Positions 4,125 to 38,521 of a DNA stretch of 64,000 nucleotides are shown here, in pieces. The stretch comes from Patescibacteria group bacterium (GTDB lineage Bacteria; Patescibacteriota; Minisyncoccia; Phycocordibacterales; Phycocordibacteraceae): the NCBI GenBank assembly GCA_030837225.1, contig JAUPKX010000007.1:158657-222656 (forward strand), in the 5' to 3' direction. The stretch's first letter is position 1; each line of letters starts with the position of its first letter. The notes beneath the pieces were generated by a model. The model was not told the origin of the DNA. It saw only the letters and a list, made by a program, of their open reading frames with translations, and did not search any database. The position numbers were made by a program, and so were the translations under genes.

Positions 4125-5879
4125 CTATTCGGAAACCGCTCGCAACACCTCCTCAACCGACGTAATGCCGCGCGTGGACTTATAGAGCCCGTCCTCAAGC
4201 ATCGTGAGCATGCCTTCCTTGCGAGCTTGCGCTTCAATGGCGTCGGGTGCTGCGTTGTGAAGAATGAGCTCGCGAAGCGCAGACGAAAGCATCAAGACCT
4301 CATGAATACCAATACGGCCGGAGTATCCGTCCTCACACTGAGCAGACGGTACCGGCTTGTAGAACGGAACTTTATCCATGGTTGTTCCTTCCTTCACAAG
4401 CTTCTCTTCGAGAAGAGCCTTCATAACATTGTCGAACTTATCGTCGCTAGCAACCTTGCTACGTTCCATCGCATCAAGCGCGTACTGCTCTTTGCCGTCA
4501 CAGAGTCTGCGCACAAGACGCTGACCCATAACCATGCGGAGCGTTGAGACCAAGAGGAATGGTTCCACACCCATGTCCATAAGTCGTGGGATAGCGCCTG
4601 CAGCGGAATTCGTGTGAATGGTTGAGAGTACGAGGTGTCCCGTAAGTGCGGCGTTAATCGCAAGAGATGCTGTCTCCGCATCACGAATCTCTCCCACCAT
4701 GATGATGTTTGGGTCCTGGCGAAGGAGGGCACGAAGACCGTTCGCGAACGTAAACCCTATGGCTGGGTTCACCTGTGTCTGATTCACGCGCTTCATCTGG
4801 TACTCGATCGGGTCCTCAACGGTAGAAATGTTTACGTCCGGCGTATTCAAAATATCGAGGATGGTATAGAGGGTCGTGGTCTTTCCGGAACCAGTCGGTC
4901 CGGAAATCAAAATGATACCCGTAGTCTGTTTCATAGACTGATGCACCCGCTCAAGCCCCGAGCCATGGAACCCGAGCACATCGAGGGTAAATCCTTCGCC
5001 GGTCTCCCTCAACAAACGCATAACGATCTTCTCGCCGTAGTAGGTCGGGAGAAGTGACACGCGGAAGGACACCTTGTCCGCTTCAGTCTCCATCTTGAAG
5101 CGTCCGTCCTGCGGAAGACGCTTCTCATCGAGCTTCAAATTCGCAAGCACCTTGATGCGCGCGGTGATGCCGGGGGCGGCAGTGCGCGGCAACGTCATCG
5201 CGTCGTGCAAGACCCCGTCGATGCGGTACCGCACGAGTACCTCTGTCTCCATGGGCTCGATATGAATGTCGGATGCCTTTTGGATGATGGCGTGACGAAG
5301 CAACGTATCAACAATGCGTACAATCGGCAGGTCCTCGGCCATCTTCTTGAGATCCTCGCCTGATGCCTCGTCTCCAGACTGTCCGTCCTTTATTAGGTTA
5401 ATGCGGCCCGCTTCCGTGGTGATGAGGTCGCCGAACTCTTCCTTTAAAGACTTCTGGTACTGCAGCAGTACATTCTTCAAAGACTCGTCGTCTGTTAGGC
5501 GCGGAAGAATCTTTAGTCCTGTGGTCTTTCGGACCGAATCGATAGAGGGAAGATCCTCAGTATCAAGCATCGCTACCTCGAGCGAGTTTCCGTCCTTCTT
5601 AAACGCAACAATGGAGTGAGTACGTGCAATTGGTTCTGGAATCAAAGAGAGGACGTTCAAGTCGATCTTCTTGTCCTTCAAGTTAACGAACGGGATGCCG
5701 AGCACGTATGCCTTAATGCGACGAAGGCTATCGCTTGAGAGAAGTCCCTGCGCAATCAATATGTCGCCAATGGATTGCTTCTTCCGTTTCGCTTCTTCGT
5801 CTGCAGCATCGACATCCTTTCGAGACACGAGTCCGGAGTCGAGGATAAATTCTTTGAGTTCGCTTTCAGAGACCTGCAT
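4125..5879 (-). CDS. pilB: type IV pilus assembly ATPase PilB (GspE family)
   Basis: GspII N-domain, Walker A SGPTGSGKTTTLY, Asp box, Walker B, His box; likely start MQVSESELKEF at 5879 (track start 5993 is an upstream extension); TATACT -10 just upstream. Confidence 0.9.
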   Translation of the reverse strand: MQVSESELKEFILDSGLVSRKDVDAADEEAKRKKQSIGDILIAQGLLSSDSLRRIKAYVLGIPFVNLKDKKIDLNVLSLIPEPIARTHSIVAFKKDGNSLEVAMLDTEDLPSIDSVRKTTGLKILPRLTDDESLKNVLLQYQKSLKEEFGDLITTEAGRINLIKDGQSGDEASGEDLKKMAEDLPIVRIVDTLLRHAIIQKASDIHIEPMETEVLVRYRIDGVLHDAMTLPRTAAPGITARIKVLANLKLDEKRLPQDGRFKMETEADKVSFRVSLLPTYYGEKIVMRLLRETGEGFTLDVLGFHGSGLERVHQSMKQTTGIILISGPTGSGKTTTLYTILDILNTPDVNISTVEDPIEYQMKRVNQTQVNPAIGFTFANGLRALLRQDPNIIMVGEIRDAETASLAINAALTGHLVLSTIHTNSAAGAIPRLMDMGVEPFLLVSTLRMVMGQRLVRRLCDGKEQYALDAMERSKVASDDKFDNVMKALLEEKLVKEGTTMDKVPFYKPVPSAQCEDGYSGRIGIHEVLMLSSALRELILHNAAPDAIEAQARKEGMLTMLEDGLYKSTRGITSVEEVLRAVSE

Positions 5880-5952
5880 GCTGTTTGTGTGTAAAGTATA
5901 GCGCGCCGCGAGATGAATCGCGGCGCGCATATGGTTTATGTCGGGGAAAGAA

Positions 5953-6348
5953 TCAGTCGTCGTTCTTGAGTGGATGCGGCCAAAACACCACAAAGCCTAT
6001 CCTCTCAACCTTCTCTCCCTCAGAAGATTCATGTTCACCTGTGAACTTCTTGAAGGTGTACCCGTCCGCCATGAAAAGCCGCTCGGCGTGTAGGAGCACG
6101 CTCCCGGCTTCAGGATACTCAGCGGGCAGGAGAATGGTCGTCGAGAAATTGCCTTGAGAAGCTTCCAGGTCGATTCTCTCAAGCCACGTCCCCTCATATG
6201 CTCGGCGCACCGTAACCTCGATACTTGTCGAAGCTTCAGGCTTCTGGGTGGGATCGAATATTCTGAAGACATCTTCGGCGCTTGCCTGCGCAAGTGCTCC
6301 CAACGCCTTGTATCCACTACTCTCTGCACGGTTCATCAGAACCTCCAT
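5953..6348 (-). CDS. hypothetical protein (131 aa from MEVLMNRAESSG)
   Basis: ORF with GAGGATTAACTATG RBS at internal Met; no recognised domain. Confidence 0.4.
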   Translation of the reverse strand: MEVLMNRAESSGYKALGALAQASAEDVFRIFDPTQKPEASTSIEVTVRRAYEGTWLERIDLEASQGNFSTTILLPAEYPEAGSVLLHAERLFMADGYTFKKFTGEHESSEGEKVERIGFVVFWPHPLKNDD

Positions 6349-11494: not shown

Positions 11495-13024
11495 ATGTCC
11501 ATAAAGATAGTCTTGAGTCTTCTCGCCCTTTCAGGTCTCGCCGGTATCGTGCTCGGGTACGTGCTTCGTCTCTTAATTGCGCTCGGCCAGCGTGGCTCGT
11601 TGGAGCTTGAAGTGAAGCAGAAGATGCTCGAAGCCAAAGAGCGCGCAAGCCGCGTGCTTGAGGATGCCGAAGATCGCGCCAAGAAGCTCGAGGGTGAGCG
11701 CATGCATCCCCTTAAGGAACGTGAGGAGAAGCTCGCGAAAGCTGCGGACCGTATAAACAAGCGTGAGGAGTTCCTCGACGAGCGTGAACGCGCACTCGCA
11801 ACTGAAGCAGATGATGTAAAGAACCGTGAGAACGAAGTCGCAAACCTAAAGCGTGACGCTGAGAAGCTCCGTGACGAACGACGCCAGGAACTTGCTCGTA
11901 TCTCACATCTGTCAGAGAAGGATGCAAAAGCCATGCTTCTCAAAGACCTCGAAGATAGCCATGAGGAAAGCGTGCTCGCACGACTTCAGAAGCTCGAGGC
12001 ACACGGTCGAGAGCAGCTAGAAGCAAAGGGACGCGCCATTCTCCTCTCAGTTATTCATCGCATGGGCGCAGCCGTTAACAGCGAGGTTATGACGCTGTCC
12101 GTACAGATTCCTTCAGAGGAAGTGAAGGGCAAGATTATCGGGAAGGAAGGTCGCAACATTAAGGCCTTTGAGCGAGCTACTGGTGTTGATGTCATCATCG
12201 ACGACGCACCAGACAAGATAACGCTCTCATCGTTCGATCCACTGCGTCGCCACACTGCAAAGCTCGCACTCGAGAACCTCATTGCAGACGGTCGTATCCA
12301 GCCTGCGAAGATCGAAGAGGCTGTTGAGAAGGCAAAGGCAGAGATCGCAGAGATGGTTAAGCAAAAAGGCGAAGAAGCAGCATACGAGGTTGGTGTTATC
12401 GGCCTTGATCCGCGCCTCATTGCCCTTCTTGGGCGCCTTAACTTCCGCACAAGCTACGGCCAGAACGTACTTCAGCACTCTATTGAGATGGCGCACATCG
12501 CTGGCATGCTCGCTGCAGAGCTCGGTGCGAACGTAGAGGTCGCAAAAGCTGGAGCGCTTCTTCACGACATCGGAAAGGCCGTTGATCACGAACTCGAAGG
12601 CACCCACGTCGAGATCGGACGCCGTATTCTCGAGAAGTTTGGCGTTGATATAGCGGTTATTCAGGCGATGCAGTCTCATCATGAGGAGTATCCGTACGAG
12701 ACAACAGAGTCCATGATTGTGCAGGTGGCAGACGCAATCTCTGCAGGGCGCCCTGGAGCGCGTCGTGATACCGTAGAGCGATATCTTGAGCGTTTAGGCG
12801 ACTTGGAGCGGATTGCGCGAGGGTATGAGGGCGTCGAAAAGGTATACGCTATCTCTGCCGGACGTGAAATACGCATCTTCGTAAACCCAGGAAAGGTTAC
12901 GGACCTCGCGATGCACCGCATGGCGCGCGATATTGCTGAGCGCGTGCAGAAGGAGCTGAAATATCCGGGAGAAATCAAGGTGAATGTGATTCGAGAGAAC
13001 CGCGTCGTCGAGTTTGCACGGTAA
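11495..13024 (+). CDS. rny: ribonuclease Y
   Basis: N-terminal TM helix, coiled coil, KH domain (IIGKEGRNIKAFE), HD domain (LLHDIGKA). Confidence 0.9.
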   Translation: MSIKIVLSLLALSGLAGIVLGYVLRLLIALGQRGSLELEVKQKMLEAKERASRVLEDAEDRAKKLEGERMHPLKEREEKLAKAADRINKREEFLDERERALATEADDVKNRENEVANLKRDAEKLRDERRQELARISHLSEKDAKAMLLKDLEDSHEESVLARLQKLEAHGREQLEAKGRAILLSVIHRMGAAVNSEVMTLSVQIPSEEVKGKIIGKEGRNIKAFERATGVDVIIDDAPDKITLSSFDPLRRHTAKLALENLIADGRIQPAKIEEAVEKAKAEIAEMVKQKGEEAAYEVGVIGLDPRLIALLGRLNFRTSYGQNVLQHSIEMAHIAGMLAAELGANVEVAKAGALLHDIGKAVDHELEGTHVEIGRRILEKFGVDIAVIQAMQSHHEEYPYETTESMIVQVADAISAGRPGARRDTVERYLERLGDLERIARGYEGVEKVYAISAGREIRIFVNPGKVTDLAMHRMARDIAERVQKELKYPGEIKVNVIRENRVVEFAR

Positions 13025-13191: not shown

Positions 13192-13464
13192 ATGAACAAA
13201 GCAGACATCGCAGCAAAGGTGCAGGACGTACTCGGCGGCACAAAGGCTGACGCAGAGCGCGCAGTTGAGTGTGTCATCGGTTGCATCACTGACGGCCTCA
13301 AGGGAGGCGACGAAGTATCAATCGCTGGCCTCGGCATCTTCAGCGCGAAGGCTCGCCCAGCACGCACCGGACGCAATCCACGCACTGGCGAGACTATCAA
13401 GATCGCAGCTACTCGTACTCCGAAGTTCCGTGCAGCTAAGGCACTCAAGGACGCGGTTAAGTAG
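13192..13464 (+). CDS. hup: DNA-binding protein HU
   Basis: 90 aa; MNKADIAAKV...GFGxF...RNPRTGE...PKF motifs of HU/IHF family. Confidence 0.9.
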   Translation: MNKADIAAKVQDVLGGTKADAERAVECVIGCITDGLKGGDEVSIAGLGIFSAKARPARTGRNPRTGETIKIAATRTPKFRAAKALKDAVK

Positions 13465-13999: not shown

Positions 14000-15220
14000 C
14001 TAGAGAGCGTCTATTGCCTCGTCTGCGAGGTCCTGTGCCTCTTCAGCGAAGTCTATAGCGTCTTCATAGTCTTCGTCATCAAGGGCGTCTTCTGCGTCAT
14101 TGAGTGCGTCCTCAGCTTCGTCCAGAAGATCTTCTGCCTCGTTTATTCTTGAGCTTGAGCTATTTGAGTCATCAATCTCATCCTGCGCGTCGTTGATCGC
14201 TTCCTGCGCATCATCGATAGCGTCTTCTGCATCAGATTCGTCGTCATCACTGTTGCTGCTTGAACCTATTTCGTCGAGTGCTTCGTCAATAAGATCTTCA
14301 GCTTCGTCTGCTAGATCCATGGCTTCCTCGTAGTCCTCATCATCGAGAGCGTCCTCTGCCTCGCTTATGAGGTCCTCTGCTTCGTCGAGGAGGTCTTCAG
14401 CATCGTCAGTGTCTTCGCCATCATCATTTGCAGCATCGACCTCGTCCCTTGCGTCGTCGAGCGCATCATTTGCCTCGTCGATAGCGTCTTCAGCGTCTCC
14501 TTCGTCGGCATCGTTGTTGTCATCGTTGTCATCATCATTTCCACTGCCGTCGATCTCATCGAGAGCATCATCTATAAGATCAAGGGCCTCGTCCGCGAGC
14601 TCGTTTGCATCGCTATAATCCTCGTCAACGAATGCGTAGAGCGCAAGCGTGACCTTCTTATCTGCGTTAACGAGGAGTGCCTTTGAGTCTCCAACCTCAT
14701 CGCCTTCGTCTTTGGCGTTTTCATAATCATCCATCGCGTCCTCATGTGCGTCACGCGCATCAAGAATTGCGCTCCGTGCCTCAGTCTGCGCGGTGGAGGT
14801 TGGCTTTGGTGTCGGAATAACAGGCGTAGTTAGTTGTGGAGCGGGTACCGTTGGCTTCGGGACCGCTGGCGACGTGAGTACGATGTACTTCGCGCGCGAG
14901 ACCGGACCGAAGGTTCCTGTTGCAGGACTAATCCCGTTTGCAGTCTGCCACTTCTGGACTGCCGCTACGGTCTTCGTCTGGTACTGGTTTGTCTCATATC
15001 CCTTTGAGCCGACACCTGATGTCGAAATCGTAAAACCATTTGCGTTCAGGTACTGCTGGAGGCAACGTACCGCCTCGCTCTCGACACCGAGTTCAAGATT
15101 GCTTGTAAAGGTACAGGTCGCAGCGCGCGCTTGTGCTGGAATCATGAGCGTACTTGCAACGAGCATCATGCCGAGCACGATAAATGCTGCAGCGCTCTTT
15201 TGGATAGTGGTGATATTCAT
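14000..15220 (-). CDS. secreted peptidoglycan-binding (PG_binding_1-like) protein with very acidic Asp/Glu repeat tail
   Basis: Signal peptide; domain LGVESEAVRCLQQYLNANGF...VAAVQKWQTANGISPATGTFGP; Pro-rich linker; about 200 aa of D/E repeats (EAEDALDDEDYEEAMDLADEAEDLIDEALDEI occurring twice). Confidence 0.65.
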   Translation of the reverse strand: MNITTIQKSAAAFIVLGMMLVASTLMIPAQARAATCTFTSNLELGVESEAVRCLQQYLNANGFTISTSGVGSKGYETNQYQTKTVAAVQKWQTANGISPATGTFGPVSRAKYIVLTSPAVPKPTVPAPQLTTPVIPTPKPTSTAQTEARSAILDARDAHEDAMDDYENAKDEGDEVGDSKALLVNADKKVTLALYAFVDEDYSDANELADEALDLIDDALDEIDGSGNDDDNDDNNDADEGDAEDAIDEANDALDDARDEVDAANDDGEDTDDAEDLLDEAEDLISEAEDALDDEDYEEAMDLADEAEDLIDEALDEIGSSSNSDDDESDAEDAIDDAQEAINDAQDEIDDSNSSSSRINEAEDLLDEAEDALNDAEDALDDEDYEDAIDFAEEAQDLADEAIDAL

Positions 15221-15355
15221 ACGTACTAAGATCAGTGGTAAACGTGCCGCGTCGTACGCGATGTACGATCGTATGTATTAAAGATAGCATGTGGGTATCT
15301 GTGGAATGTGTGACGGAGATACAGAAAAGAGCGCCATGCGGCGCTCTTTTCTTTT

Positions 15356-15428
15356 GGTGCGGGATAGGAGAATCGGACTCCTGCTCTCAGTTTGGAAAAC
15401 TGATGTTCTACCATTAAACTAATCCCGC
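15356..15428 (-). tRNA. tRNA-Gly (anticodon TCC), CCA encoded
   Basis: GCGGGATTAGTTTAATGGTAGAACATCAGTTTTCCAAACTGAGAGCAGGAGTCCGATTCTCCTATCCCGCACCA read on minus strand; cloverleaf parsed by hand. Confidence 0.85.
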
Positions 15429-15475
15429 TTCGGCTCGAGAATACCATATTCTAGAGCCCTCTGTCTTCTTCCTAG

Positions 15476-15546
15476 TCGGGGTGCGGAGAATCGAACTCCG
15501 TCAACTACTTCCCAAAAGTAGCGTACTACCGGTATACGACACCCCG
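15476..15546 (-). tRNA. tRNA-Pro (anticodon TGG), C1:G72, no CCA encoded
   Basis: CGGGGTGTCGTATACCGGTAGTACGCTACTTTTGGGAAGTAGTTGACGGAGTTCGATTCTCCGCACCCCGA on minus strand. Confidence 0.85.
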
Positions 15547-15905
15547 AGCGAACGATAGGATGCGCAGCAGCACATCCCGACAGGAATACCTTCTCATGAA
15601 TCTCCTGTCTTCGCTATCCTAACAGATTTATATGATTTGCGGCAGAGAGCCTCAGAATCTCTTTAAGTTAGGTCTATGGGGGTCTCTTATTTTGTGGATA
15701 CATGTCGAATAGCTTCATGTCTCTCAACACAGAGGTCTTTGAGAGAGACTTATATAAAACCTAGCAAACGTAAGGGTATTTTTAGGACTATGAAGATTTC
15801 TTTAGGTTTGTCCTATGTCCTTTATCCCCAGTATCAACAGACTTATCCCCCTTTGTCCCAAAAGCAAAAGACAGCCGATTGGGCTGTCTTTTGCTTTCTC
15901 ACGCT

Positions 15906-15979
15906 TGGTGCGGATAGGGAGAATCGAACTCCCGCTATATCATTGGCAACGATATGTTCTACCACTAAACTATATCCGC
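15906..15979 (-). tRNA. tRNA-Gly (anticodon GCC), CCA encoded
   Basis: GCGGATATAGTTTAGTGGTAGAACATATCGTTGCCAATGATATAGCGGGAGTTCGATTCTCCCTATCCGCACCA on minus strand; hairpin terminator (AAAGACAGCC-gatt-GGCTGTCTTT) downstream at about 15870-15900. Confidence 0.85.
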
Positions 15980-16666
15980 GCTGGGTTTTATACTCTCATA
16001 ATACGCGCTATTCATCAATTCCCCTGGCATCAGGGATATCCACGCTAGAACCTTAGCCTTGAAATAGGCACTTGATACAGTAATCAAACAGACACCGTGC
16101 GAGAGACGTCGTGTCTTGTGGCGACCATTGATTGTTGTTGTTTTGGTGAAATTCTCCTCAGGCAGACCAGTGGCGGCCACCCAGTATCTCCGACACTGAT
16201 CATCATTTAAGTCAGGATAGATGAGTATTTGTGCCCTTACCCTTTCCATAGGTATTCGGCAAACATGTAAGACAAAGAACACATAAAGCCTAATCATTTC
16301 AGAGTCTGTGTTCGTAAGCCTTACGACAGATTTGCCAAGCTTCGTGCCTTCGCCCCAATACAGCATTATGCCTGCTATGAATAGCGGGTTGTATTTTAGG
16401 ACCTCGAATTCTTCAGTAGCTACCTTTCTCGCTTCATCGTACGCAAGCTCAAGATTCTTTCCACGCGTTTTGTTCAAAGTCCTAATTCTTAGAGTGTGTT
16501 GGACTCGAGCCGCTTCGGAAAGTTTGTCTCGTATTTTTTCAGACCAATCCTCTTTCCCGAACCATCCAGACAGGGTACTTCGCGGTACTTCAAGAATCTC
16601 GATAATTTCTTTATAACTCTTACCCGAAAGCCTTAGGTGCCTCGCGGCTTCTTTATCAGTACGCAT
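15965..16666 (-). CDS. HTH + LAGLIDADG-like homing-endonuclease-family protein, tRNA-adjacent
   Basis: N-terminal HTH (GKSYKEIIEILEVPRSTLSGWF), motif LFIAGIMLYWGEGTK resembling LAGLIDADG block; segment VVRLTNTDSEMIRLY alignable to the paralog at 63465; last 15 nt overlap tRNA-Gly 5' end; lower GC. Confidence 0.5.
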   Translation of the reverse strand: MRTDKEAARHLRLSGKSYKEIIEILEVPRSTLSGWFGKEDWSEKIRDKLSEAARVQHTLRIRTLNKTRGKNLELAYDEARKVATEEFEVLKYNPLFIAGIMLYWGEGTKLGKSVVRLTNTDSEMIRLYVFFVLHVCRIPMERVRAQILIYPDLNDDQCRRYWVAATGLPEENFTKTTTINGRHKTRRLSHGVCLITVSSAYFKAKVLAWISLMPGELMNSAYYESIKPSADIV

Positions 16667-16734: not shown

Positions 16735-17916
16735 TTACAGAGCGTACTCCGACGGAACGAACGAGATGTCCTTCAGTCTGCCAGCTCCCGAAACGAGAAC
16801 CTCACGCGGGAGCGCGTGCATATTGAAGTTACTTGCCATAGAGAATCCATAGGCACCGGCGTTCCGTATAACAAGAACATCATCCAGTTCTGGACGGATC
16901 ATCATACGATCGACAGCAAAGAGGTCTCCTGATTCACACACGTTGCCTGCGATCGTTATGGGAGTCTTGGGACCACGAGTGCGAGAGAGGTTCTCGATAG
17001 GATGATATGAGCCGTACATGGCATGTCGTATCAACTGATTGAACCCGGAGTTAACACCAACGAACTGATGTTTGTTTGTTTTCTTTTGATCTACTACTGA
17101 CACGAGCAAAGAACCGCTCTCAGCCACAATGAATCTGCCGGGCTCCATAGCAAACGACACATCACGTCCCATAGATTCCTTGAAGGCGCTGGTGAGAATC
17201 TTGAACTCCTTCCCTACCCTCTTCAAATCAAGCTGACTTTCCTCCGGCGCGTACGATATGCCGAGCCCTCCGCCGAAATCAATGTGTGTAAGGTTCGGAA
17301 ATCTCTTAGCCGTTTGTAAGAGCACACGCACTGACTTGAGGAACACTGTCGCATCAAGGACATTCGATCCAATGTGCTGCTGTATCCCCACAACCCTAAG
17401 GCCGTAGGTGTCTGTAATCCGCAGTGCCTCCGGAATATCCTCAAGTGTTATGCCAAATTTGCTATGCGGACCGCCTGTTATTACGTGCGCATGGTGCCCC
17501 GCACCAATACCCTGATTAAGACGCAGGGATACTTCCCTGCCGAGCGCTTTCCTACCCCACGTCTCAATCTGCGTAAGTGAATCAAGATGTATGCGGGCGC
17601 CTGAAGACGCTGCACTCGCTAGTTCTCTTTCCGTTAAACTCGCACACGTAAAGCTCGTATCTTTCGCTTTGAACCCCGCATGCTTTGCGAGCGCGAGTTC
17701 TCCAAGACTTACGGCCTCTGCTCCTATTCCTTGCTTGCGGATAATCCTCAGAATCTCAGGATTGCTGTTCGCCTTCATGGCGTAATGGATCGCGACGTTC
17801 GGGAAGTGTCGCCAGAGCTTCTGACACTGTGCCTCTATAACCTGCTGCTCATAGACATAGACTGGAGTCCCGTATGTCTGCGCCGCCTTATGTAGTACCT
17901 CTCTTCCCTTTTTCAT
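16735..17916 (-). CDS. lysA: diaminopimelate decarboxylase family (PLP-dependent fold-III decarboxylase)
   Basis: YAMKANSNPEILRII PLP-lysine motif, GxGLG and C-terminal beta-barrel motifs; start MKKGREV at 17916 (track extension to 17979 would overlap tRNA-Arg). Confidence 0.8.
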   Translation of the reverse strand: MKKGREVLHKAAQTYGTPVYVYEQQVIEAQCQKLWRHFPNVAIHYAMKANSNPEILRIIRKQGIGAEAVSLGELALAKHAGFKAKDTSFTCASLTERELASAASSGARIHLDSLTQIETWGRKALGREVSLRLNQGIGAGHHAHVITGGPHSKFGITLEDIPEALRITDTYGLRVVGIQQHIGSNVLDATVFLKSVRVLLQTAKRFPNLTHIDFGGGLGISYAPEESQLDLKRVGKEFKILTSAFKESMGRDVSFAMEPGRFIVAESGSLLVSVVDQKKTNKHQFVGVNSGFNQLIRHAMYGSYHPIENLSRTRGPKTPITIAGNVCESGDLFAVDRMMIRPELDDVLVIRNAGAYGFSMASNFNMHALPREVLVSGAGRLKDISFVPSEYAL

Positions 17917-17920
17917 GATG

Positions 17921-17993
17921 TGCGCCCGGAGGGAATCGAACCCCCGACCCTCTGTTCCGAAGACAGATGCTCTATCCACTGAGCTACGGGCGC
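17921..17993 (-). tRNA. tRNA-Arg (anticodon TCG), no CCA encoded
   Basis: GCGCCCGTAGCTCAGTGGATAGAGCATCTGTCTTCGGAACAGAGGGTCGGGGGTTCGATTCCCTCCGGGCGCA on minus strand. Confidence 0.8.
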
Positions 17994-29101: not shown

Positions 29102-32100
29102 ATGCAGCACCTCGAAGGCCTTAACGACGCGCAACGGGAAGCCGTCCTAGCCACCGAGGGTCCGGTCTCAGTCCTCGCGGGTGCCGGATCGGGCAAAACA
29201 CGGGTTCTAACCACCCGCATCTACCATCTTATAAAGGAAGGGGTGCCCGCTAACCGGATTCTCGCCGTTACCTTCACCAACAAGGCCGCCCGAGAGATGA
29301 GAGAGCGCCTCGCGCACAGACTCGGGGATAGTCCGCTCCCGTTTGTAGCTACGTTCCATGGCCTTGGCCGGGATATTCTCCAGCGATACGGCAGTCGCAT
29401 TGGTATCTCTCGTTATTTCACGATATTTGATCGCGATGACTCGAAATCCGCCATAAAGAGGGTATTGAAGGAGATGGATATCGACCCAAAGGAGATGAAT
29501 CCAAACTTTGTCCTTTCCCGCATCTCGAAAGAAAAGGGAGAAGGCTCCACTCCCGATGCTTTCCGTGAGAAGTACGCACAGAAGAGCTTCCAGTCCCGTG
29601 TTATCGCTGAAGTCTGGCCCAAGTACGAAGCAATACTCAAGAAGGAGAAGGCGCTCGACTTCGACGATCTTATTTGTCTTCCGGTGCGCTTGCTTCGCGA
29701 GCACGAGGACATCCGTAGGGAAGCGGAGCAGCTCTACAGCCACGTACACGTGGACGAGTTCCAAGACACCAACGAACTGCAGGGCAAGCTCGTCGACATG
29801 CTCACACAACCACAGAACAATGTGTTCGTGGTAGGGGATATTGACCAGTGTCTTCTTGCCGGAACAGAAGTGCGCATGGCAGATGGTTCGAAAAAATCTA
29901 TCGAACTAATTCAAGAAGGGGATTCTGTTCTGTCTAATTTTGGAAGTGGGGATATGCGGGCCGCAAGCGTTATAAGAGCCATGAAGCGAGAGTTCTCTGG
30001 AGACTTGGTTCACATCATCACTATGTCTGGACGCACCCTTACAAGCACGCCGGAGCATATTCACTTTGCCGGATACCGACTAGGTGTCGTACCCCAGAAA
30101 TACTTTACCTACCTGATGTACAAAAAGGGGAAAGGGTGGCGTCTTGGCGTCTCGCAGACCTATACCAACGGCCAGCGCGCGCCCATGATCGGATTTCAGC
30201 AGCGATGCAACCAAGAGCACGGGGACAGTGTGTGGATTGTTGGCGTATTTGACTCGGCACAGGAAGCACGCGTGCACGAGTACAAACTCTCGTTAACGTA
30301 TGGCATTCCAACGCTCCCTTTCGTAGCGCGAAAGGGAAGCGTAGGCGGGTATATCCATGACCAGGAAACGCTTGATGCGGTATTCGCATCATTCGATACT
30401 GATGCCGCCGCAAGAAAACTCTTATCAGACCGTGGACTCTCTCTTTCCTATCCCCATCATCGTGCTCAAGCAACGCGCAGCAACAGAAGGAATATTCTTA
30501 TCACACTATGTGGGGACCACAGGGGTAGCACACCCATGCATCGCATATCGATTGTTGGGAGCGATGATATAGGAAAAGAGGCACTGGTAGCGGCAGGATT
30601 TTCAGTACGTTCAGCAGGGTTAGGTTCGATGAGTTGGAGATTTGAGACCGCCCATGCCGATTACGGCAAGGCGAGAGAAATCTCTGATCGACTCCTCATA
30701 ATATTTCCAGATGCTCAGGTCGTAGAAACCGCGCGTCTCGGAGGAAAGAAAACAAACCCTAAGGATTCGAACTCATTGCCATTTCTTCCCGCTGCCTCGG
30801 TGCTGCCAGGTATGGCCATGTTCGACGACGAAGCTGGATGGGATATCGTCGAGTCTGTAGAACGTGTTCCTGGGAACAAGATACCCGTCTATGACTTAAA
30901 CATTGAAGGGACACATAACTTCATTGCAAACGGTCTTTCAACACACAATTGTATCTACACCTGGCGAGGCGCTACAATCGAGAACCTGCTCAAGTTCGAA
31001 GAGCAGTACGAGAACGCAAAGACCATCGTGCTCGCGCATAACTATCGTTCAACAAAAACAATTGTTGCTGCAGGAAACCAGATAATCGAGAAGAATCAGA
31101 ACCGCAAGGATAAGCATGCAGTAACCGACAACGCGGATGGGGAACCGATACGCTTACACATTGCGCGCAACGCAGAAAGCGAAGCTCGATGGGTGGCGCG
31201 TGAAGCGAGGAAAGCTATACGGGAAGGCGTTTTACCTGAAGAAGTTGCCGTACTGTTCCGTACGAACTTCCAGTCTCGTGCTCTTGAGGAAGCGTTCCTC
31301 TCAGAAGGCCTCCCATACAAGGTGCTCGGTACGCGCTTCCTTGATCGCAAAGAAGTGAAGGACGTACTCGCATGGGTCAGACTTGCACTTGATCCAGAAC
31401 GCGAAGTGGACCGCATCCGCGCCGTACAGGCACCAACGCGCGGAATAGGGAAAGTGACCCTCGGCAAGCTTATCGACGGAAAGAGGGACACTTTGAAGCC
31501 TGCAGAAGTGAAGAAGGTAGCGGCATTCGAAGCTATCGTTATGGAACTGAACGAACTCGCAAAGATTGCGGTGCCGAGCGAATTCGTAAAGCTCGTCATT
31601 GAGCGCTCAGGATTAGCCGAAGCGCTGCGTAAGGGCGGGGAAGAGGACGCCGAGCGCCTTGAGAACGCGAAGGAGCTCGCAACCTTAGCCAGCCGCTATG
31701 ACGGCATGCCAGGAGAGGAGGGAATTGCAGCATTTCTGGCGGAGTCCGCCTTAGCTGGCGACCAAGACGAGCTCGACGCACCAGGCACTGCCGGCATTAC
31801 CCTTATGACCGTACACGCAGCCAAGGGACTTGAGTTCGATACCGTATTTGTTACCGGCATGGAGCAGGGATTGTTCCCGCACGAAGCGAGAGAGGGGGAG
31901 AAGCGGGACGAGGAAGAGGAGCGCCGCTTGTTCTATGTAGCGGTTACGCGCGCAAAGCGCAGGCTTAATCTCACGCTCGCAACCGTTCGTCGCATCTATG
32001 GCACCGACTTCGCCTCGGAACCTTCCATGTTCATCCGCGACATAGACGAGGGGCTTATCAGTTTCTCAGAAGGGGACGAGCTCTATGGAGAGCGTACGAT

Positions 32101-32110
32101 ATACATCTAG
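29102..32110 (+). CDS. uvrD: UvrD/PcrA-family DNA helicase interrupted by an intein in motif III
   Basis: Walker A AGSGKTRVLT, DEFQDT, then VVGDIDQ | intein | CIYTWRGA, downstream helicase motifs IV-VI. Confidence 0.9.
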   Translation: MQHLEGLNDAQREAVLATEGPVSVLAGAGSGKTRVLTTRIYHLIKEGVPANRILAVTFTNKAAREMRERLAHRLGDSPLPFVATFHGLGRDILQRYGSRIGISRYFTIFDRDDSKSAIKRVLKEMDIDPKEMNPNFVLSRISKEKGEGSTPDAFREKYAQKSFQSRVIAEVWPKYEAILKKEKALDFDDLICLPVRLLREHEDIRREAEQLYSHVHVDEFQDTNELQGKLVDMLTQPQNNVFVVGDIDQCLLAGTEVRMADGSKKSIELIQEGDSVLSNFGSGDMRAASVIRAMKREFSGDLVHIITMSGRTLTSTPEHIHFAGYRLGVVPQKYFTYLMYKKGKGWRLGVSQTYTNGQRAPMIGFQQRCNQEHGDSVWIVGVFDSAQEARVHEYKLSLTYGIPTLPFVARKGSVGGYIHDQETLDAVFASFDTDAAARKLLSDRGLSLSYPHHRAQATRSNRRNILITLCGDHRGSTPMHRISIVGSDDIGKEALVAAGFSVRSAGLGSMSWRFETAHADYGKAREISDRLLIIFPDAQVVETARLGGKKTNPKDSNSLPFLPAASVLPGMAMFDDEAGWDIVESVERVPGNKIPVYDLNIEGTHNFIANGLSTHNCIYTWRGATIENLLKFEEQYENAKTIVLAHNYRSTKTIVAAGNQIIEKNQNRKDKHAVTDNADGEPIRLHIARNAESEARWVAREARKAIREGVLPEEVAVLFRTNFQSRALEEAFLSEGLPYKVLGTRFLDRKEVKDVLAWVRLALDPEREVDRIRAVQAPTRGIGKVTLGKLIDGKRDTLKPAEVKKVAAFEAIVMELNELAKIAVPSEFVKLVIERSGLAEALRKGGEEDAERLENAKELATLASRYDGMPGEEGIAAFLAESALAGDQDELDAPGTAGITLMTVHAAKGLEFDTVFVTGMEQGLFPHEAREGEKRDEEEERRLFYVAVTRAKRRLNLTLATVRRIYGTDFASEPSMFIRDIDEGLISFSEGDELYGERTIYI
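29849..30949 (+). mobile_element. intein (367 aa) within uvrD
   Basis: Starts Cys (CLLAGTEVRMADG), block B GRTLTSTPEH, C-terminal VYDLNIEGTHNFIANGLSTHN followed by +1 Cys; flanking extein halves re-form helicase motif III. Confidence 0.8.
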
Positions 32111-32977: not shown

Positions 32978-33994
32978 ATGGCTCATTCTACCCGCACCCT
33001 CCGCATCGCAGGCGCATCTTTACTCGCTGTTTTCATGGTCGGCGGCACATATCTTTCGACAGGACCTAATCCCTTCTTTGGCATGACGCGCATCGCAGGC
33101 GCGCAGTCCTCAGAAGAACTTCTTCGTGAGTATGCCGCTAAGGATAGCGACGCTGACGGACTTCCTGATTGGCAGGAATCCTTGTATGGGACCGATCCCT
33201 TGAATCCTGAATCCTTCCAGGCAGGGATTAAGGACGGGGAAGCGGTTGCTCAGGGTCTTATCGAGCCGAAGGTTGTTGTTCGTCCGGAAGAGGAACCGAT
33301 TGACCCGAATAGTATCCCGGGTATCGATGCGGTTCCTGATTCGCTCACCGATCGATTCTCTCAGACTCTCCTAAAGCAGTATCTGCTTAATAAGGGGACC
33401 GAACCACCCACACAAGAGGAAATACTCGCGTTCGTGCAGCAGGGTGTCGCGGAACTCTCCGCGACCTTTGTGCCGAAAGATGCCTACAGTTCTGCACAGG
33501 TGCGCTCTTCCGGTACTTCCGGGGAAGCTGCTCTGCGTGCGTATGCGGCACAAGTAGATGCTGCATTTGAAACACATACCGTGTCCTCAGAGAAGAACGA
33601 GCTCTTCTATTTCGAGGATGCTATGAAGGGCAGCACGAGTGCTCTTAAGAAGATTGCTGATATCAGCGAGGCATACACCAATATCGCTGACGCGCTTATG
33701 GACATCCCGGTACCACAAGAAGCACAGCGTGCTCACCTTTCGATCGTGAACGCGCTCATGCAGATGAGTGATGTGACCGAGCACATGGCTTCAATGGAGA
33801 GCGATCCACTTCGAGCGCTCATGGGTATCGGACTGTATCAGCAGTCTGCTGACCGGGTTGTTACCGCCCTTACCGGCATGCACGGAATCTTTACTGCTCT
33901 ACAGGTAACGATACCGGCTGGGACGGACGGATATGAACTGGTTCAGATGGCGAACTATGCCGCGCAGGTTTCTGCTAAGAACTCAGCACAATAG
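32978..33994 (+). CDS. membrane-anchored hypothetical protein, first gene of T4SS-like operon
   Basis: N-terminal TM LRIAGASLLAVFMVGGTYL; no recognised domain. Confidence 0.45.
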   Translation: MAHSTRTLRIAGASLLAVFMVGGTYLSTGPNPFFGMTRIAGAQSSEELLREYAAKDSDADGLPDWQESLYGTDPLNPESFQAGIKDGEAVAQGLIEPKVVVRPEEEPIDPNSIPGIDAVPDSLTDRFSQTLLKQYLLNKGTEPPTQEEILAFVQQGVAELSATFVPKDAYSSAQVRSSGTSGEAALRAYAAQVDAAFETHTVSSEKNELFYFEDAMKGSTSALKKIADISEAYTNIADALMDIPVPQEAQRAHLSIVNALMQMSDVTEHMASMESDPLRALMGIGLYQQSADRVVTALTGMHGIFTALQVTIPAGTDGYELVQMANYAAQVSAKNSAQ

Positions 33995-33995
33995 T

Positions 33996-35477
33996 ATGTC
34001 TTTCTTCTCAAACTCTCGCTCCATACTTGCAGGACTCGCGTTTCTCCTCATGCTCAGCGTAGCGACGCCAGCTCATGCGCAGGTTCCAATTCCAGCACCA
34101 CAACCTGTTGTAGACGTTTTGGGTGTTCCTGTTCAAAAACTGAATCTGATAGAGAGTATCGTAAGTGCCGCGAATAGCGCGGCTGATCACACGCTCGAGT
34201 ATGTTTTGAACGGGCTCGCGTGGGATGTCGCGAACCTCGCCATTGAGTCCATGACGAAGAGTATCGTTAACTGGATTAACTCGGGCTTCGAAGGCTCTCC
34301 TGCCTTCGTTACGGATCTCGAATACAACTTGCGCGGCTTAAGCGATGCGGTCGCCGACCGTTTCTTTGATGAGCTTGCGGTATCTACGCAAGCCATTTTT
34401 GAGGCTAATGGCCAGGACAGAGTGCTCGACGCTGTCCGGCTCGCATATTACCTGCGCACGAGCCCTGAATCCTTCTATGTACGGTACCCAAATACTCTTG
34501 GCCAGGTAAGTTCAGACCATCGCGCATTTCTTGATGGGGATTTTAGCCAGGGAGGCTGGAACGCCTGGATTTCAGCCAGCCTTAACCTGACCAACAATCC
34601 GTATGGTCAGCGAGCACTTCTTGAGGACGAGCTTTCAGGACTCCTCGCAAGCGCAACAGGCAACCGTCTTCAGGAATTGTCGTGGGGAAGCGGTTTCCGC
34701 TCACTACGTGCGTGTGACACCGAAGGTACGGGACCCGCAATTGCCTCCTCTACGGAAATCAGCCTGAGCGGTGTCGAGCCGTGTGCTTTTGGAGAGATGC
34801 GTACACCTGGCTCGGTGATCCAGCGCCAGTTGAACGATGCTCTTGGTTCCGGTAGGGATCGGCTCATCGTTGCGGATGATTTTAACGAGATCGTCGGTGC
34901 TCTTCTAAACCAGCTCGTCGGCCATGTACTTGGTGCAAACAATTCTGGAGGTTTGAGTGGAGTTTCTCGCCCATCAGCTGGTGGCGGTGCTTCGTTCCTC
35001 GACCGGTCAACAGATCCTTCGCAGAATACGGGAAGTGGTGTTCGTACTGCTGCTTCCTTCACCGCAACAATCGAGGATCAGCGTCGTATCGTTAAAACAT
35101 ATCAAGCGAACTGGGAGAAGATACGCGGCGCAGCGGATACCGCAGCAGCAAAGTGCCCGAACAACTCTGACGCGGAGAACGTAGTGACCAGAGCACAAGC
35201 GGCACTAATAAAGGCGGCGGATGCGTTAGCGAAGTTCGATGACCTCCTTTCGCGCATTGCAGCAGCGAATGCTGCGGGAGGGAATCAGAGTACCGCAATA
35301 TCAGGAATTGCGAACGATTTCACTATTCTTAGCCGTTCAGTAATTGTTCCAACTGGAGAGGAGATAGCAGAAGCCAAGATAGAGTCGCAGGATACTGGAG
35401 ACCTCGAGCCAGGCTCGCTCTACAGCCAGATGGTGCGTGCTGCGAAAGCTACCTCATGCCAGGCGAGTGGGGAGTAA
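33996..35477 (+). CDS. secreted hypothetical protein (T4SS-like operon)
   Basis: Signal peptide MSFFSNSRSILAGLAFLLMLSVATPAHAQ; track start 33933 overlaps previous gene. Confidence 0.45.
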   Translation: MSFFSNSRSILAGLAFLLMLSVATPAHAQVPIPAPQPVVDVLGVPVQKLNLIESIVSAANSAADHTLEYVLNGLAWDVANLAIESMTKSIVNWINSGFEGSPAFVTDLEYNLRGLSDAVADRFFDELAVSTQAIFEANGQDRVLDAVRLAYYLRTSPESFYVRYPNTLGQVSSDHRAFLDGDFSQGGWNAWISASLNLTNNPYGQRALLEDELSGLLASATGNRLQELSWGSGFRSLRACDTEGTGPAIASSTEISLSGVEPCAFGEMRTPGSVIQRQLNDALGSGRDRLIVADDFNEIVGALLNQLVGHVLGANNSGGLSGVSRPSAGGGASFLDRSTDPSQNTGSGVRTAASFTATIEDQRRIVKTYQANWEKIRGAADTAAAKCPNNSDAENVVTRAQAALIKAADALAKFDDLLSRIAAANAAGGNQSTAISGIANDFTILSRSVIVPTGEEIAEAKIESQDTGDLEPGSLYSQMVRAAKATSCQASGE

Positions 35478-35527
35478 TTCCTATGATACGGACCTTACTT
35501 GAGAGGATTCGTAGGGGAGGATTGTCT

Positions 35528-37645
35528 ATGAAGCTACCGGTATCTGCATTTCTCGCAGGGTTTCTACTCGTAACACCACTGACTGCACAGGCAGCGGGTG
35601 CTGCTGATGTTCTTTCATGGGTTGGTAGGCAGGTGGGTGGGGCATTTGTCGACATCTTGTCTTTAATGGTTGTGCCGATAGCGTTTGTGTTCCTTTCGAT
35701 TTCAAATTTCGTACTTTGGGTCTCTGGACTCGTATTCAACTGGGCAGTTATCCGGACCGTATTCCAGTTTGGAACCTACTTTGGCACCTCTGATGAGATG
35801 TTAACCGCTTGGGGCGTCATGCGGGATGTCGCCAACATCGGCCTTTTGTTCGGTTTCATATTCATGGGAGTGCTTCTCATCCTGAACGTTGAGGGGGGAG
35901 GGCATGGACACGGGGGAGGCATCAGTGCCAAGAAGGCTATCCCGAGGCTTCTTATATTCGCCGTGCTTGTGAACTTCAGTTTGTTCACCACTCAGGCGGT
36001 TATTGATGTGTCTAACGGCCTTGCCTCGGTGTTTGCTGAGCAGGCAGGACAGAAGTGTGATCTTGTTGGTGATGCTGAGAAGTGCGCGAATCTAGGAATC
36101 GCGTCCGTTATATCTCAGCGTGCAGGCATAACGACTATTTTTGCAGGCGGCCCCAACCCACTTACTGATCCGCTAAAGACTGCTGTAGTGTATGTCGGTC
36201 TTTCAATATTCGTCATGATTACGGCGATGGTCCTTTTGGCTGGAGCCATCATGTTTATCTATCGTGCAGTGGTGCTCTCGTTCCTTATGGTTACGTCGCC
36301 CATAGGCTTTGCGGGTATGGCGATTCCTTCCCTTAAGAAAATCGCAGACGAGTGGTGGAGCAAACTAATCTCTCAGGCGTTCTTTGCTCCAGTGTATCTC
36401 CTTTTGATATTCATTAGCCTCAAGCTAACTGAGACGTTGGCTAAGGTCTCAGTGGAGGGTGGGGGTAAGGGCAGTCTTGCGAGTGCGCTCGCTGGAACCG
36501 GAGGAGAGCCGGGCACCGAGGCAGGGAATATACAGATTGTGCTCGTGTTTATGGTTGTTATTGGGTTCATGATGGCGTCCCTTGTGACAGCAAATAAGAT
36601 GGGGGCTGTGGGAGCGAAGTTTGCAACTAAGACTGCCGGCGCTCTTACGATTGGCACCGCTGGGTTCGTTGGTCGCAGGACGCTTGGAAGGGCTTCGACC
36701 AGAATTGCCAACAATATTAGGCGTTCGCCCCTTGGCGAAACCGAGGCTGGGCGCCGCCTGGCTGGGATTGCAGATTATGGTTCTAAGGCGAGTTATAGCT
36801 TGAGGAATGTGGGTAACAAGGCGTTGAGTGGTGCGGGAGCAGGAATAGATATTGGAACGGCAAATAAGACTGCCGGACATGGATACCACGGCATTGAAGA
36901 GAAGGCAGTGAAGGAACGCGTTGACTATGCCAAGAGTCTTAAGGGCCCAAGAGGAGAATCGGATCAAGAGATGGAGTACCGTCTTGCGCACCAGGAGGCG
37001 AGCCTTATTAACGCAAACAGTAATTACGACGCTGCGGAAACCTCACTGTCTACATCGCAAGCAGCGCGTAACTCACAGCAAATGGTTCGAGATAACGTCG
37101 CGTTCTCTGTTGCCGAACAAGAGAGAATTATCGCCAGCAATCCAGCTGATACAGATGCATACAGGGTGCTCGCTGAACTTAAGTTGCAGCTTGCAAAAGA
37201 AGAACAGGCGCTTACTCAATCAGACCGAGACCTTAAGAAGGCGAATGATACCTTGGCAAAAGCTACAACTGACCGCGCTAACGCAATGAAGGCTGCAGAA
37301 AACACTGATCGAGGCTACGTGGAAGAGAAGGATCGTCAAAGAGGCTATGCCCGTAACCTAGACTCACGTGCGCTTATAGTAGGAGAAGACGGAAAGCCTG
37401 TTCGAGGACCCGCAGGACGTCCTCGCGGAGCCTTTGATTTAATCTCAGGAGATCATGCTTTCACACTTGCACACCACGCAGAACACGAAGCCTCCGGAGA
37501 CATAGTTAAGTATGCAGGTAAGGATGCAACGGAGCGTGCACTGGACACCCTTAAAAAACAGATGAGTAAGGCTGATAAGCCAGCAGATGCACCTGCACCA
37601 AGCACAAGTGGACCATCTACGGGCGGTGGCGGTCCTAGTCATTAG
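35528..37645 (+). CDS. VirB6/TrbL-like polytopic membrane protein with C-terminal coiled-coil extension
   Basis: GGAGGA RBS before MKLPVSAFLAGF signal; six or more TM helices with Gly-rich loops; long charged coiled-coil tail. Confidence 0.55.
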   Translation: MKLPVSAFLAGFLLVTPLTAQAAGAADVLSWVGRQVGGAFVDILSLMVVPIAFVFLSISNFVLWVSGLVFNWAVIRTVFQFGTYFGTSDEMLTAWGVMRDVANIGLLFGFIFMGVLLILNVEGGGHGHGGGISAKKAIPRLLIFAVLVNFSLFTTQAVIDVSNGLASVFAEQAGQKCDLVGDAEKCANLGIASVISQRAGITTIFAGGPNPLTDPLKTAVVYVGLSIFVMITAMVLLAGAIMFIYRAVVLSFLMVTSPIGFAGMAIPSLKKIADEWWSKLISQAFFAPVYLLLIFISLKLTETLAKVSVEGGGKGSLASALAGTGGEPGTEAGNIQIVLVFMVVIGFMMASLVTANKMGAVGAKFATKTAGALTIGTAGFVGRRTLGRASTRIANNIRRSPLGETEAGRRLAGIADYGSKASYSLRNVGNKALSGAGAGIDIGTANKTAGHGYHGIEEKAVKERVDYAKSLKGPRGESDQEMEYRLAHQEASLINANSNYDAAETSLSTSQAARNSQQMVRDNVAFSVAEQERIIASNPADTDAYRVLAELKLQLAKEEQALTQSDRDLKKANDTLAKATTDRANAMKAAENTDRGYVEEKDRQRGYARNLDSRALIVGEDGKPVRGPAGRPRGAFDLISGDHAFTLAHHAEHEASGDIVKYAGKDATERALDTLKKQMSKADKPADAPAPSTSGPSTGGGGPSH

Positions 37646-37662
37646 TCTGTAAAATTATTGAA

Positions 37663-38478
37663 ATGGATGCTCCAGAAATTTCTGACGAGAATGTTACCGA
37701 CGCCATGGGCGTCCTCATAGGAGGACTTCCAAAGCCGGTGCAAGAATTCTTGTTGAGCGACGAGAGAAACGCGGTGGCAAGCGAACTATCGAACAAGTAC
37801 GGTCTCCATGCAGATCAAGCAGGGAAGTTCGAAGAGGCATACCTGCACATGCTTCTAGGTATAGCAACACCTGAAGATTTTGTATCTTCCCTCAAGAAGG
37901 CTGGGGTGCAGCAAGAGGTAATAAACGGTCTTGCGGCCGATGTTAATACGCGCGTGTTCATGCGTCTGCGCGATGCTGAACGCCTAGGAACTCCAATAAC
38001 GGATACGCCGCCACCAACACCGAGTAAGCCCGCTCCTCTTCCTCCTCCCGCTCTCGACTATCAGCCAGCAGCAGTTCCAACTCTCCCCGGGTCTCCGGTG
38101 CCAGCACCTATGCCCCCTGCTCCAGCAGTAGTAGCACCCGTTCTTGCAGCTGCTGAACCGACACCAGTGCCGCAACCCCTAGCTCCTCAGCAGCATTTCG
38201 TTCACACGATGCCTAGTTCCCAGCAGCAACAGGGCTGGCACCCTGCCGCGGCGGTTCATATCTTCGTTCCGACGCATGGAGCACCTATGCAGATGAGCGC
38301 GCCAGCACCGCAAGCACCCGTTCAAGAAACTCCTGTTTACAATGCTGCTTATTCTGAGCCAGCTCCAACCGTTCCTGTGCAGCCTGTATATGTAAACCCG
38401 GAGCAAACACCAGTAGCTCCTGCTGCTGTAATTCATAAAGAGTACAGTGCCGATCCGTATCGCGAGCCCGTGCAGTAG
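37663..38478 (+). CDS. Pro-rich hypothetical protein (T4SS-like operon)
   Basis: PPPTPSKPAPLPPPALDYQPAAVP low-complexity region. Confidence 0.45.
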   Translation: MDAPEISDENVTDAMGVLIGGLPKPVQEFLLSDERNAVASELSNKYGLHADQAGKFEEAYLHMLLGIATPEDFVSSLKKAGVQQEVINGLAADVNTRVFMRLRDAERLGTPITDTPPPTPSKPAPLPPPALDYQPAAVPTLPGSPVPAPMPPAPAVVAPVLAAAEPTPVPQPLAPQQHFVHTMPSSQQQQGWHPAAAVHIFVPTHGAPMQMSAPAPQAPVQETPVYNAAYSEPAPTVPVQPVYVNPEQTPVAPAAVIHKEYSADPYREPVQ

Positions 38479-38521
38479 AAAAAAGGGAAGTGGTTTCAGG
38501 TATCAGGTATACTGATACGTA

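Follow-up and report, generated by a model that had tools for sequence, protein, structure and literature searches.

What might an ultra-small bacterium of the Candidate Phyla Radiation (abbreviated CPR and also called Patescibacteria) do with a putatively exported, wall-binding protein whose C-terminal tail is made up largely of aspartate, alanine and glutamate? The question is raised by a gene on the minus strand of a 64,000-nucleotide (64-kb) stretch of DNA from a Patescibacteria group bacterium (assembly GCA_030837225.1, contig JAUPKX010000007.1, positions 158,657 to 222,656), hereafter called the window. All coordinates are positions within the window, and amino acid (aa) numbers refer to the 406-aa protein. 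CPR bacteria, which form a large part of bacterial diversity and whose lifestyle is one of attachment to other cells, have a poorly understood envelope. The product of this gene is best explained as a non-enzymatic cell-envelope protein, in which a candidate signal peptide, a peptidoglycan-binding domain and a Pro/Thr-rich linker are followed by three acidic modules; this domain order, and its conservation across homologues, is strongly supported by the data below. Scans of the 406-aa protein against Pfam and NCBIfam returned no catalytic domain, in agreement with an earlier note on this DNA made from the sequence alone; the NCBIfam matches were limited to sub-threshold helical or coiled-coil families, and those in PHROGs to weak hits to the peptidoglycan-binding domains of endolysins. 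As to the role of the acidic chain, we tentatively favour that of a wall-tethered polyanion.

A putative wall-binding domain followed by three acidic modules

The signal-peptide-like segment at the N-terminus reads MNITTIQKSAAAFIVLGMMLVASTLMIPAQARAA. It shows a lysine (K8) in the n-region, the hydrophobic core AAAFIVLGMMLVASTLMI, and a c-region (PAQARAA) with AxA sites at aa 29-33, so that cleavage would probably occur after A31 or A33. From this n-h-c layout, judged by inspection, we infer that the protein is exported by means of a Sec-type signal peptide. A hydrophobic N-terminal segment is found across the family alignment, and AlphaFold2 (AF2), for which the full-length model was built on a 66-sequence family alignment, placed a helix at aa 8-24 with a low predicted local distance difference test (pLDDT) score. 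The following domain scored 33.3 bits with PG_binding_1 (PF01471; gathering score 23) at aa 48-106, with E = 5.5e-8; the same match was obtained for all 120 homologues listed, and the predicted fold of aa 35-113 agrees with that of solved peptidoglycan-binding domains. The earlier note had proposed both the signal peptide and this domain, and the latter is thus backed by the PF01471 hidden Markov model (HMM) as well as by the fold; the two strings quoted for it were located at aa 44 (LGVESEAVRCLQQYLNANGF) and aa 86 (AAVQKWQTANGISPATGTFGP).

Neither Cys36 nor Cys53 varies in the full-length family alignment, a pattern compatible with a disulfide formed outside the cytoplasm. The pair is a feature of this PG_binding_1 subfamily, unlike its relatives of known structure, namely the N-terminal domain of SleB (6tci), the Zn DD-peptidase of Streptomyces albus (1lbu) and phage endolysins (5nm7, 3bkh). 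In all of these PG_binding_1 serves to target a catalytic domain (amidase, transglycosylase or peptidase), while here it is followed by acidic helical bundles and no enzyme. A lipoprotein anchor at Cys36 was considered and rejected: the residues preceding it vary (T, E, D, G or S), no lipobox is present, and Cys53 is its invariant partner. The Pro/Thr linker described in the earlier note is indeed found at aa 114-144, with the sequence VLTSPAVPKPTVPAPQLTTPVIPTPKPTSTA; its pLDDT falls below 50 at aa 121-133, and its median identity to homologues is 19%.

The tail (aa 146-406) contains 28.4% D, 17.6% A, 15.3% E, 8.8% L and 5.0% I, with 114 acidic (D/E) and only 9 basic (K/R/H) residues, and so deserves the term polyanionic that it had been given. 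It is longer than first described (∼262 aa rather than ∼200), and the two units said to occur twice are each present exactly once, their supposed second copies having diverged to 22/32 and 13/21 identical residues. The real repeat, as defined by the family module HMM, is a 79-aa module present three times (49.4, 87.1 and 80.0 bits for modules 1, 2 and 3, respectively; Table 1). At the protein level modules 2 and 3 share ∼60% identity, against 36-47% between module 1 and either of them (35-60% over all pairs). At the DNA level modules 2 and 3 repeat with a period of 264 nucleotides (nt; 88 aa) and are 65% identical, the figure for all modules being 56-65%; the longest exact internal repeat is 14 nt, and Tandem Repeats Finder detected only a weak 21-nt periodicity. 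With such divergence a collapsed-repeat artefact of assembly, which the earlier note had thought conceivable, can be excluded without read mapping. More generally, the idea that this region is an assembly artefact or non-coding low-complexity DNA has nothing in its favour beyond a repetitive appearance, and is refuted by the divergence of the modules and by the hundreds of full-length homologues present in independent assemblies.

The acidic tail does not mirror an acidic proteome, since this is the only hyper-acidic open reading frame (ORF) in the window: it contains 28% D/E when counted from stop to stop, and no other ORF exceeds 22%. No paralogue of the family was found in the window. The Ser-rich ORFs on the plus strand (14100-14333 and 14367-14618) do, as had been suspected, merely mirror the GAx/GCx codons of the gene. 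The protein stops exactly at the end of its last helix (...DLADEAIDAL), an ending conserved in the family; a C-terminal LPXTG sorting signal is absent, the sequence terminating in ...IDAL after that helix. EF-hand or DxDxDG calcium loops were also sought in the loop between helices A and B. The family consensus of this loop is DADDDG; the sequences present in the query (DAANDDG, DDSNSSS and NAKDEG) do not fit such calcium loops, and a DxDxDG-like match is uninformative because it arises trivially in a D-rich background.

Table 1. Coordinates of the gene, of the segments of its product and of the downstream hairpin
Feature	Position	Strand	Basis
Complete coding sequence, 406 aa plus TAG stop at 14000-14002	14000..15220	-	ORF list; N-terminus aligns with homologues from position 1
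Candidate signal peptide, aa 1-34	15119..15220	-	Sequence inspection, AF2, family alignment
PG_binding_1-type peptidoglycan-binding domain, aa 35-113, invariant Cys36/Cys53	14882..15118	-	
Pro/Thr-rich flexible linker, aa 114-144	14789..14881	-	Sequence, pLDDT, homologue identity
Acidic module 1, aa 145-223, net charge -20, divergent less acidic subtype	14552..14788	-	Module HMM, AF2
Inter-module linker, aa 224-239 (DGSGNDDDNDDNNDAD)	14504..14551	-	pLDDT <50 at aa 228-236
Acidic module 2, aa 240-318, net charge -40, predicted three-helix bundle	14267..14503	-	Module HMM, AF2
Inter-module linker, aa 319-327 (GSSSNSDDD)	14240..14266	-	pLDDT <50 at aa 321-323
Acidic module 3, aa 328-406, net charge -33	14003..14239	-	Module HMM, AF2, translation
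Terminator-like G+C-rich hairpin, 14 pairs, 17 nt past the stop codon	13952..13983	.	Scan plus sequence

The full-length AF2 model had a mean pLDDT of 87.4 and a predicted template modelling score (pTM) of 0.34, a low value that stems from the make-up of the model as a string of separate domains. The pLDDT exceeded 90 in the peptidoglycan-binding domain and in the helices of all three modules, and fell below 50 only in the signal peptide, the linker segment mentioned above and two inter-module segments (Table 1). In module 1 the helices span aa 143-171, 179-198 and 202-223; module 2 modelled alone (pLDDT 98.0, pTM 0.86) showed helices at its positions 2-27, 33-54 and 58-78. The prediction for each 79-aa module is thus a three-helix bundle in which Ala, Leu and Ile fill the core and Asp/Glu cover almost the entire surface. 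The earlier note had left a choice between a disordered and a helical tail; the helical option stands, as bundles with a conserved core, and that of a disordered or low-complexity array does not. Spectrin-like helices running continuously from one module into the next are not supported, since the secondary-structure program DSSP joins residues 297-351 into one helix, yet the pLDDT is below 50 in the Gly/Ser linker that this would cross.

The pattern of conservation was derived from 305 aligned modules of 121 proteins (the 120 best homologues plus the query). Positions 3, 7, 10, 14, 17, 21, 24, 34, 38 and 41, together with 45, 48, 52, 60, 64, 67, 71, 74 and 78, form a heptad-type, Ala-rich core that is hydrophobic in 82-100% of modules (mostly >95%) and practically free of charged residues. 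At nearly every other position Asp/Glu is found in 50-92% of modules, with a residue identity of just 35-70%; the only conserved non-acidic features outside the core are the Gly at loop position 28 and, at position 57, the aromatic residue (Tyr, Trp or Phe) of the 'DDEDY' turn. The combination of a hydrophobic core with non-core positions that are simply acidic points to a folded domain selected for its surface charge rather than for a particular binding face. Mean net charges in the family are -15.6, -32.6 and -33.2 for modules 1 to 3, as compared with -20, -40 and -33 in the query, and 79-86% of the acidic positions of query modules 2 and 3 stay acidic in homologues at ∼50% identity.

A charge-hydropathy analysis put modules 2 and 3 deep on the 'natively unfolded' side (H 0.39 versus a boundary of 0.57-0.60), in conflict with the conserved bundle core and the confident AF2 bundle. 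The simplest way to reconcile these results is to suppose that modules 2 and 3 need counter-ions to fold. Their -0.4 to -0.5 charges per residue would be matched by few natural domains with a predicted fold. A Foldseek search of the full model against the PDB gave no significant match (best E 0.12, to designed bundles), and phmmer with the protein against PDB sequences retrieved de novo designed bundles only.

Distribution of the family and relation to known proteins

Homologues were collected by a word-indexed search, and an exhaustive profile search was counted in clusters at 50% identity. The former yielded >360 homologues (33-51% identity), every one of which contains PG_binding_1 and many of which also match DUF4398; those with a named source come from metagenome-assembled genomes (MAGs) of Patescibacteria, Parcubacteria, Paceibacteria, Kaiserbacteria, Nomurabacteria and Campbellbacteria, and are usually annotated just as 'peptidoglycan-binding protein'. 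The profile search returned 867 clusters at E<=1e-30 and 9349 at E<=1e-10, the latter figure including proteins that share the peptidoglycan-binding domain alone. Among GTDB species representatives 48 loci were found, all but one in Patescibacteria-type MAGs. The single different label belongs to a family member (L033) on a short contig (JBIKXY010000372.1, 2611 bp) of a 'Pirellulales' MAG, and most likely reflects a binning error. Two family members (L016 and L042) lie in one and the same Patescibacteria MAG (JAUPUE01), so some genomes carry paralogues. The family is thus widespread, with hundreds of 50%-identity clusters, fast-evolving, devoid of a catalytic domain and experimentally uncharacterised; the literature searched contained no paper describing this Patescibacteria family and no functional study.

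The query aligns over its full length with 65 members at 36-51% identity, scores 379.6 bits against the family profile and has the family layout, that is, a signal peptide, a PG_binding_1 domain with the Cys pair, a linker, and two to four acidic 79-aa modules reaching the C-terminus. Of the 121 proteins, 58 are two-module forms (median 313 aa), 60 three-module forms (408 aa) and two four-module forms (494 aa), which bears out the earlier suspicion that the repeat number varies between lineages. The D/E content of the tail averages 38% and ranges from 18% to 50%. Some relatives carry additional domains: in P0137 (977 aa) a GDSL lipase/esterase (PF13472/PF00657) is placed between two pairs of modules, all downstream of the peptidoglycan-binding domain, and in P0189 (594 aa) four modules are followed by a ∼170-aa Cys-rich C-terminal domain. 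A closely related PG_binding_1 variant is present at the C-terminus of the giant proteins P0227, P0229, P0234 and P0242 (2630-4210 aa), and in two to four tandem copies in P0129, P0164 and P0190. In the multi-copy proteins whose sequences were read both Cys positions are replaced (e.g. VRALQ or VRELQ for VRCLQ). The variant may be a general wall anchor of Patescibacteria surface proteins.

The whole protein matched DUF4398 (PF14346) with 33.0 bits (gathering score 27.9); taken singly, module 2 scored 28.7 bits and module 3 25.6 bits, and module 1 gave no match. Less acidic homologues scored 21-25 bits, always in the same register. The module fold is compatible with the DUF4398 structure PA2901 (4fm3), but designed bundles score equally well, and 4fm3 was absent from the 60 best matches (E up to ∼1) of the module profile to PDB sequences; membership of the modules in DUF4398 is therefore borderline. 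What that profile did retrieve was a consensus tetratricopeptide repeat (TPR) motif, designed bundles and Ebh of Staphylococcus aureus. The hairpin of helix B, turn and helix C (A..A.DDEDYDEA..LAEEA..L) matches the TPR consensus with E=1.5e-8 when summed over eight repeats; individual matches, however, amount to ∼8 bits each, and what is predicted for the modules is a closed bundle of three helices, not a TPR solenoid. The sequence signal of the module thus appears to be that of a generic Ala-rich helical hairpin.

As regards architecture, the closest analogue in the literature found is Arp (TP0433) of Treponema pallidum, an envelope protein that likewise combines a peptidoglycan-binding domain with acidic repeats of variable copy number (10.1101/2022.08.02.502389). 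It is an analogue and not a homologue: in Arp the SPOR domain is C-terminal, and the 20-aa repeats are near-identical with a disordered or beta structure predicted for them, whereas the protein studied here has an N-terminal PG_binding_1 domain and diverged 79-aa helical-bundle modules, and no SPOR domain was matched in it by Pfam. The function of Arp is unknown, and its authors infer a positively charged partner (10.1101/2022.08.02.502389). The wall-anchored surface proteins of Gram-positive bacteria that are built from tandem three-helix bundles (protein A, the R domains of CbpA, NR-alpha of Fap1, Ebh), and the GARP coat of trypanosomes, possess specific ligand faces and are held by LPXTG, choline-binding or glycosylphosphatidylinositol anchors; here acidic residues cover the surface uniformly, and PG_binding_1 serves as the anchor. 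The general kind, namely wall-anchored envelope proteins made of tandem helical bundles or acidic repeats, is already known.

Possible roles of the acidic chain

The reading that we favour, tentatively and as somewhat less than an even bet, is that of a non-enzymatic, wall-tethered protein polyanion serving as a counter-ion reservoir, as a source of fixed surface charge and as a non-sticky brush, in a manner resembling that of teichoic acids. After export the N-terminal domain would hold the protein non-covalently on the cell's own murein, and the Pro/Thr linker would let the chain of supercharged bundles reach out from or through the wall. With a net charge of about -100, the bundles would constitute a genetically encoded wall polyanion that provides fixed negative charge, a high-capacity, low-affinity reservoir of Mg2+, Ca2+ or polyamines, and a non-sticky electrostatic brush or spacer, a job like that of teichoic acids in other single-membrane bacteria. 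Their folding would probably depend on counter-ions, since a bare fold could not sustain such a charge density. Among the roles put forward for the tail in the earlier note, cation binding and electrostatic surface interaction are plausible. Wall teichoic and lipoteichoic acids are the wall-associated polyanions of monoderm bacteria, where they bind cations and set surface charge. They differ from the present protein in being phosphodiester polymers linked covalently to murein or lipid, whereas this one would be a gene-encoded carboxylate polyanion held non-covalently; functional equivalence is offered as a hypothesis only. The genus Patescibacterium has been inferred to be monoderm with murein, possibly with a rhamnose polysaccharide instead of teichoic acids (PMC11809585). 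Kuroda et al. (2024) found secreted proteins with peptidoglycan-binding domains among the most highly expressed in three Paceibacteria, and proposed a part in host attachment (PMC10936435). A bolder version of the same idea, which we regard as rather doubtful, is that a gene-encoded polyanion replaces or joins teichoic-acid-type polymers in Patescibacteria, and that the bundles (∼-0.4 to -0.5 charges per residue) fold only when loaded with counter-ions, giving a tunable cation reservoir and a charge layer sized by module number.

Several points weigh against the polyanion role. The highly expressed proteins of PMC10936435 are not demonstrably of this family, and the one gene that could be checked measures 2079 nt. 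The family is known from sequences and predicted structures alone, AF2 confidence ignores electrostatics, and what can be said of teichoic acids in this organism is limited to a 64-kb window. Some family tails are far less acidic (D/E down to 18%, with 12% K/R), so that extreme charge is dispensable for the fold or for the family. The GDSL esterase of P0137 and the Cys-rich domain of P0189, moreover, fit a stalk or spacer at least as well as a cation sink.

In that alternative, rigid, mutually repelling and non-sticky bundles hold something at a set distance from the murein, with module number setting the length; the target would be an outer envelope layer or a host surface in most members, and a fused head domain in some paralogues. 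The discrete module classes (two, three or four), the placing of the esterase between module pairs and of the Cys-rich domain after four modules, and the use of the peptidoglycan-binding variant to anchor giant surface proteins of ∼2600-4200 aa all speak for it. Most members, the query included, nevertheless end at the last helix with no head domain, the low-pLDDT linkers rich in Gly, Ser and Asp suggest a chain that is probably flexible and no ruler, and a charge of -0.5 per residue is left without explanation; we regard a stalk or spacer as unlikely. The same holds for a host-attachment adhesin, whose bundles would bind a positively charged host-cell surface in the manner of protein A, CbpA or Fap1. 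The 305 modules show no conserved non-acidic patch that could form a specific interface, the three-helix bundle is generic, with designed bundles scoring equally well, and the family occurs in many Patescibacteria lineages whose hosts presumably differ widely. Besides, the sheaths of known archaeal hosts, being pseudomurein-free or proteinaceous, could not be bound by the peptidoglycan-binding domain; the cell's own wall is the more plausible ligand. It is very unlikely that the polyanion acts as a wall-bound trap or regulator of autolysins, lysozyme-like enzymes or cationic antimicrobial peptides, in the way that teichoic acids retain autolysins: the matches cited are all sub-threshold and generic for helical bundles, and no conserved neighbouring hydrolase gene was seen at 52 loci. 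These readings and that of a wall polyanion are not mutually exclusive.

A cytoplasmic role is effectively refuted. Carboxylate-covered helical proteins can mimic DNA, and the earlier note had listed a DNA mimic among the candidates; an anti-restriction-type acidic protein or a HEPN-domain nuclease would belong here too, the Pfam HEPN match (PF05168) being nominally above threshold (24.1 bits versus 22). That match, however, covers only profile positions 1-34 of 117, a helical hairpin, and the tail lacks the catalytic Rx4-6H motif, its single His (H159) having the nearest Arg at x2 spacing. The signal peptide, the wall-binding domain and the invariant Cys pair point outside the cell, which makes DNA mimicry an unlikely task for such a protein, and the gene occupies a chromosomal syntenic position rather than a mobile element. 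If the favoured reading is correct and the protein is an abundant wall polyanion, it would represent a protein-based answer to the job of teichoic acids and a natural case of an extremely supercharged yet folded domain. It would also offer a handle on the surface physics and host contact of ultra-small bacteria (as an antibody target, in cation-binding assays or through module-number variants). Should it be merely a spacer or a minor wall protein, the outcome would be a routine refinement of annotation.

Genomic context and other features of the window

The gene is surrounded by those for RNase Y (11495-13024), HU (13192-13464), three tRNAs (15355-15979) and lysA (16735-17979); a CCA-adding enzyme, an exo/endo-phosphatase and XerC/D are also encoded nearby. 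Its orthologue P0036, from another Patescibacteria group bacterium (GCA_019744845.1), has the same surroundings: lysA lies upstream, and the genes for HU and RNase Y lie downstream in convergent orientation. Between the two genomes, which are thus related, the acidic protein is 43% identical, as compared with 77% for RNase Y and 86% for HU, so the gene has diverged far more quickly than the housekeeping genes next to it, in the manner of surface proteins. The shared position, the abundance of the family and its occurrence in Patescibacteria mark it as a core, vertically inherited envelope gene. After clustering of ORFs at the 52 loci no conserved operon partner emerged: the commonest neighbour, an MgsA-like protein, occurred at seven loci, and the other frequent neighbour 'clusters' were antisense artefacts of the acidic-protein gene itself. 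In view of its terminator-like hairpin and the lack of a conserved partner, the gene appears to be transcribed on its own. Among the genes close by, a 233-aa ORF on the minus strand (15965-16666) gave no Pfam match, and its N-terminus looks like a helix-turn-helix (MRTDKEAARHLRLSGKSYKEIIEILEVPRSTLSGWF); its 3' end overlaps the gene for tRNA-Gly(gcc) (15906-15979), and the ORF sits within the tRNA cluster Gly-tcc, Pro-tgg, Gly-gcc.

Some other features of the window were recorded. A UvrD/REP-type helicase of 1002 aa (29102-32110, plus strand) contains an intein (PF14890, Intein_splicing, aa 523-616 of that protein) between its N- and C-terminal helicase domains. A run of co-oriented genes (32978-45666, plus strand) includes a VirB4/TraG-type P-loop ATPase at 39566-41380, together with at least seven ORFs of 271-729 aa for which Pfam gave no match. 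Type IV secretion, conjugation-like or pilus-related clusters are common in CPR genomes, and the run may be one of these. The dnaA gene (47021-48373, plus strand), with its DnaA_N, Bac_DnaA and Bac_DnaA_C domains, suggests that a replication origin is probably nearby; the G+C content of the window reaches its minimum (0.44-0.48) at 49-51 kb. Finally, a PilB/GspE-type secretion ATPase (T2SSE plus MshEN domains) is encoded at 4125-5993 on the minus strand, in keeping with reports of type IV pilus machinery in CPR bacteria.

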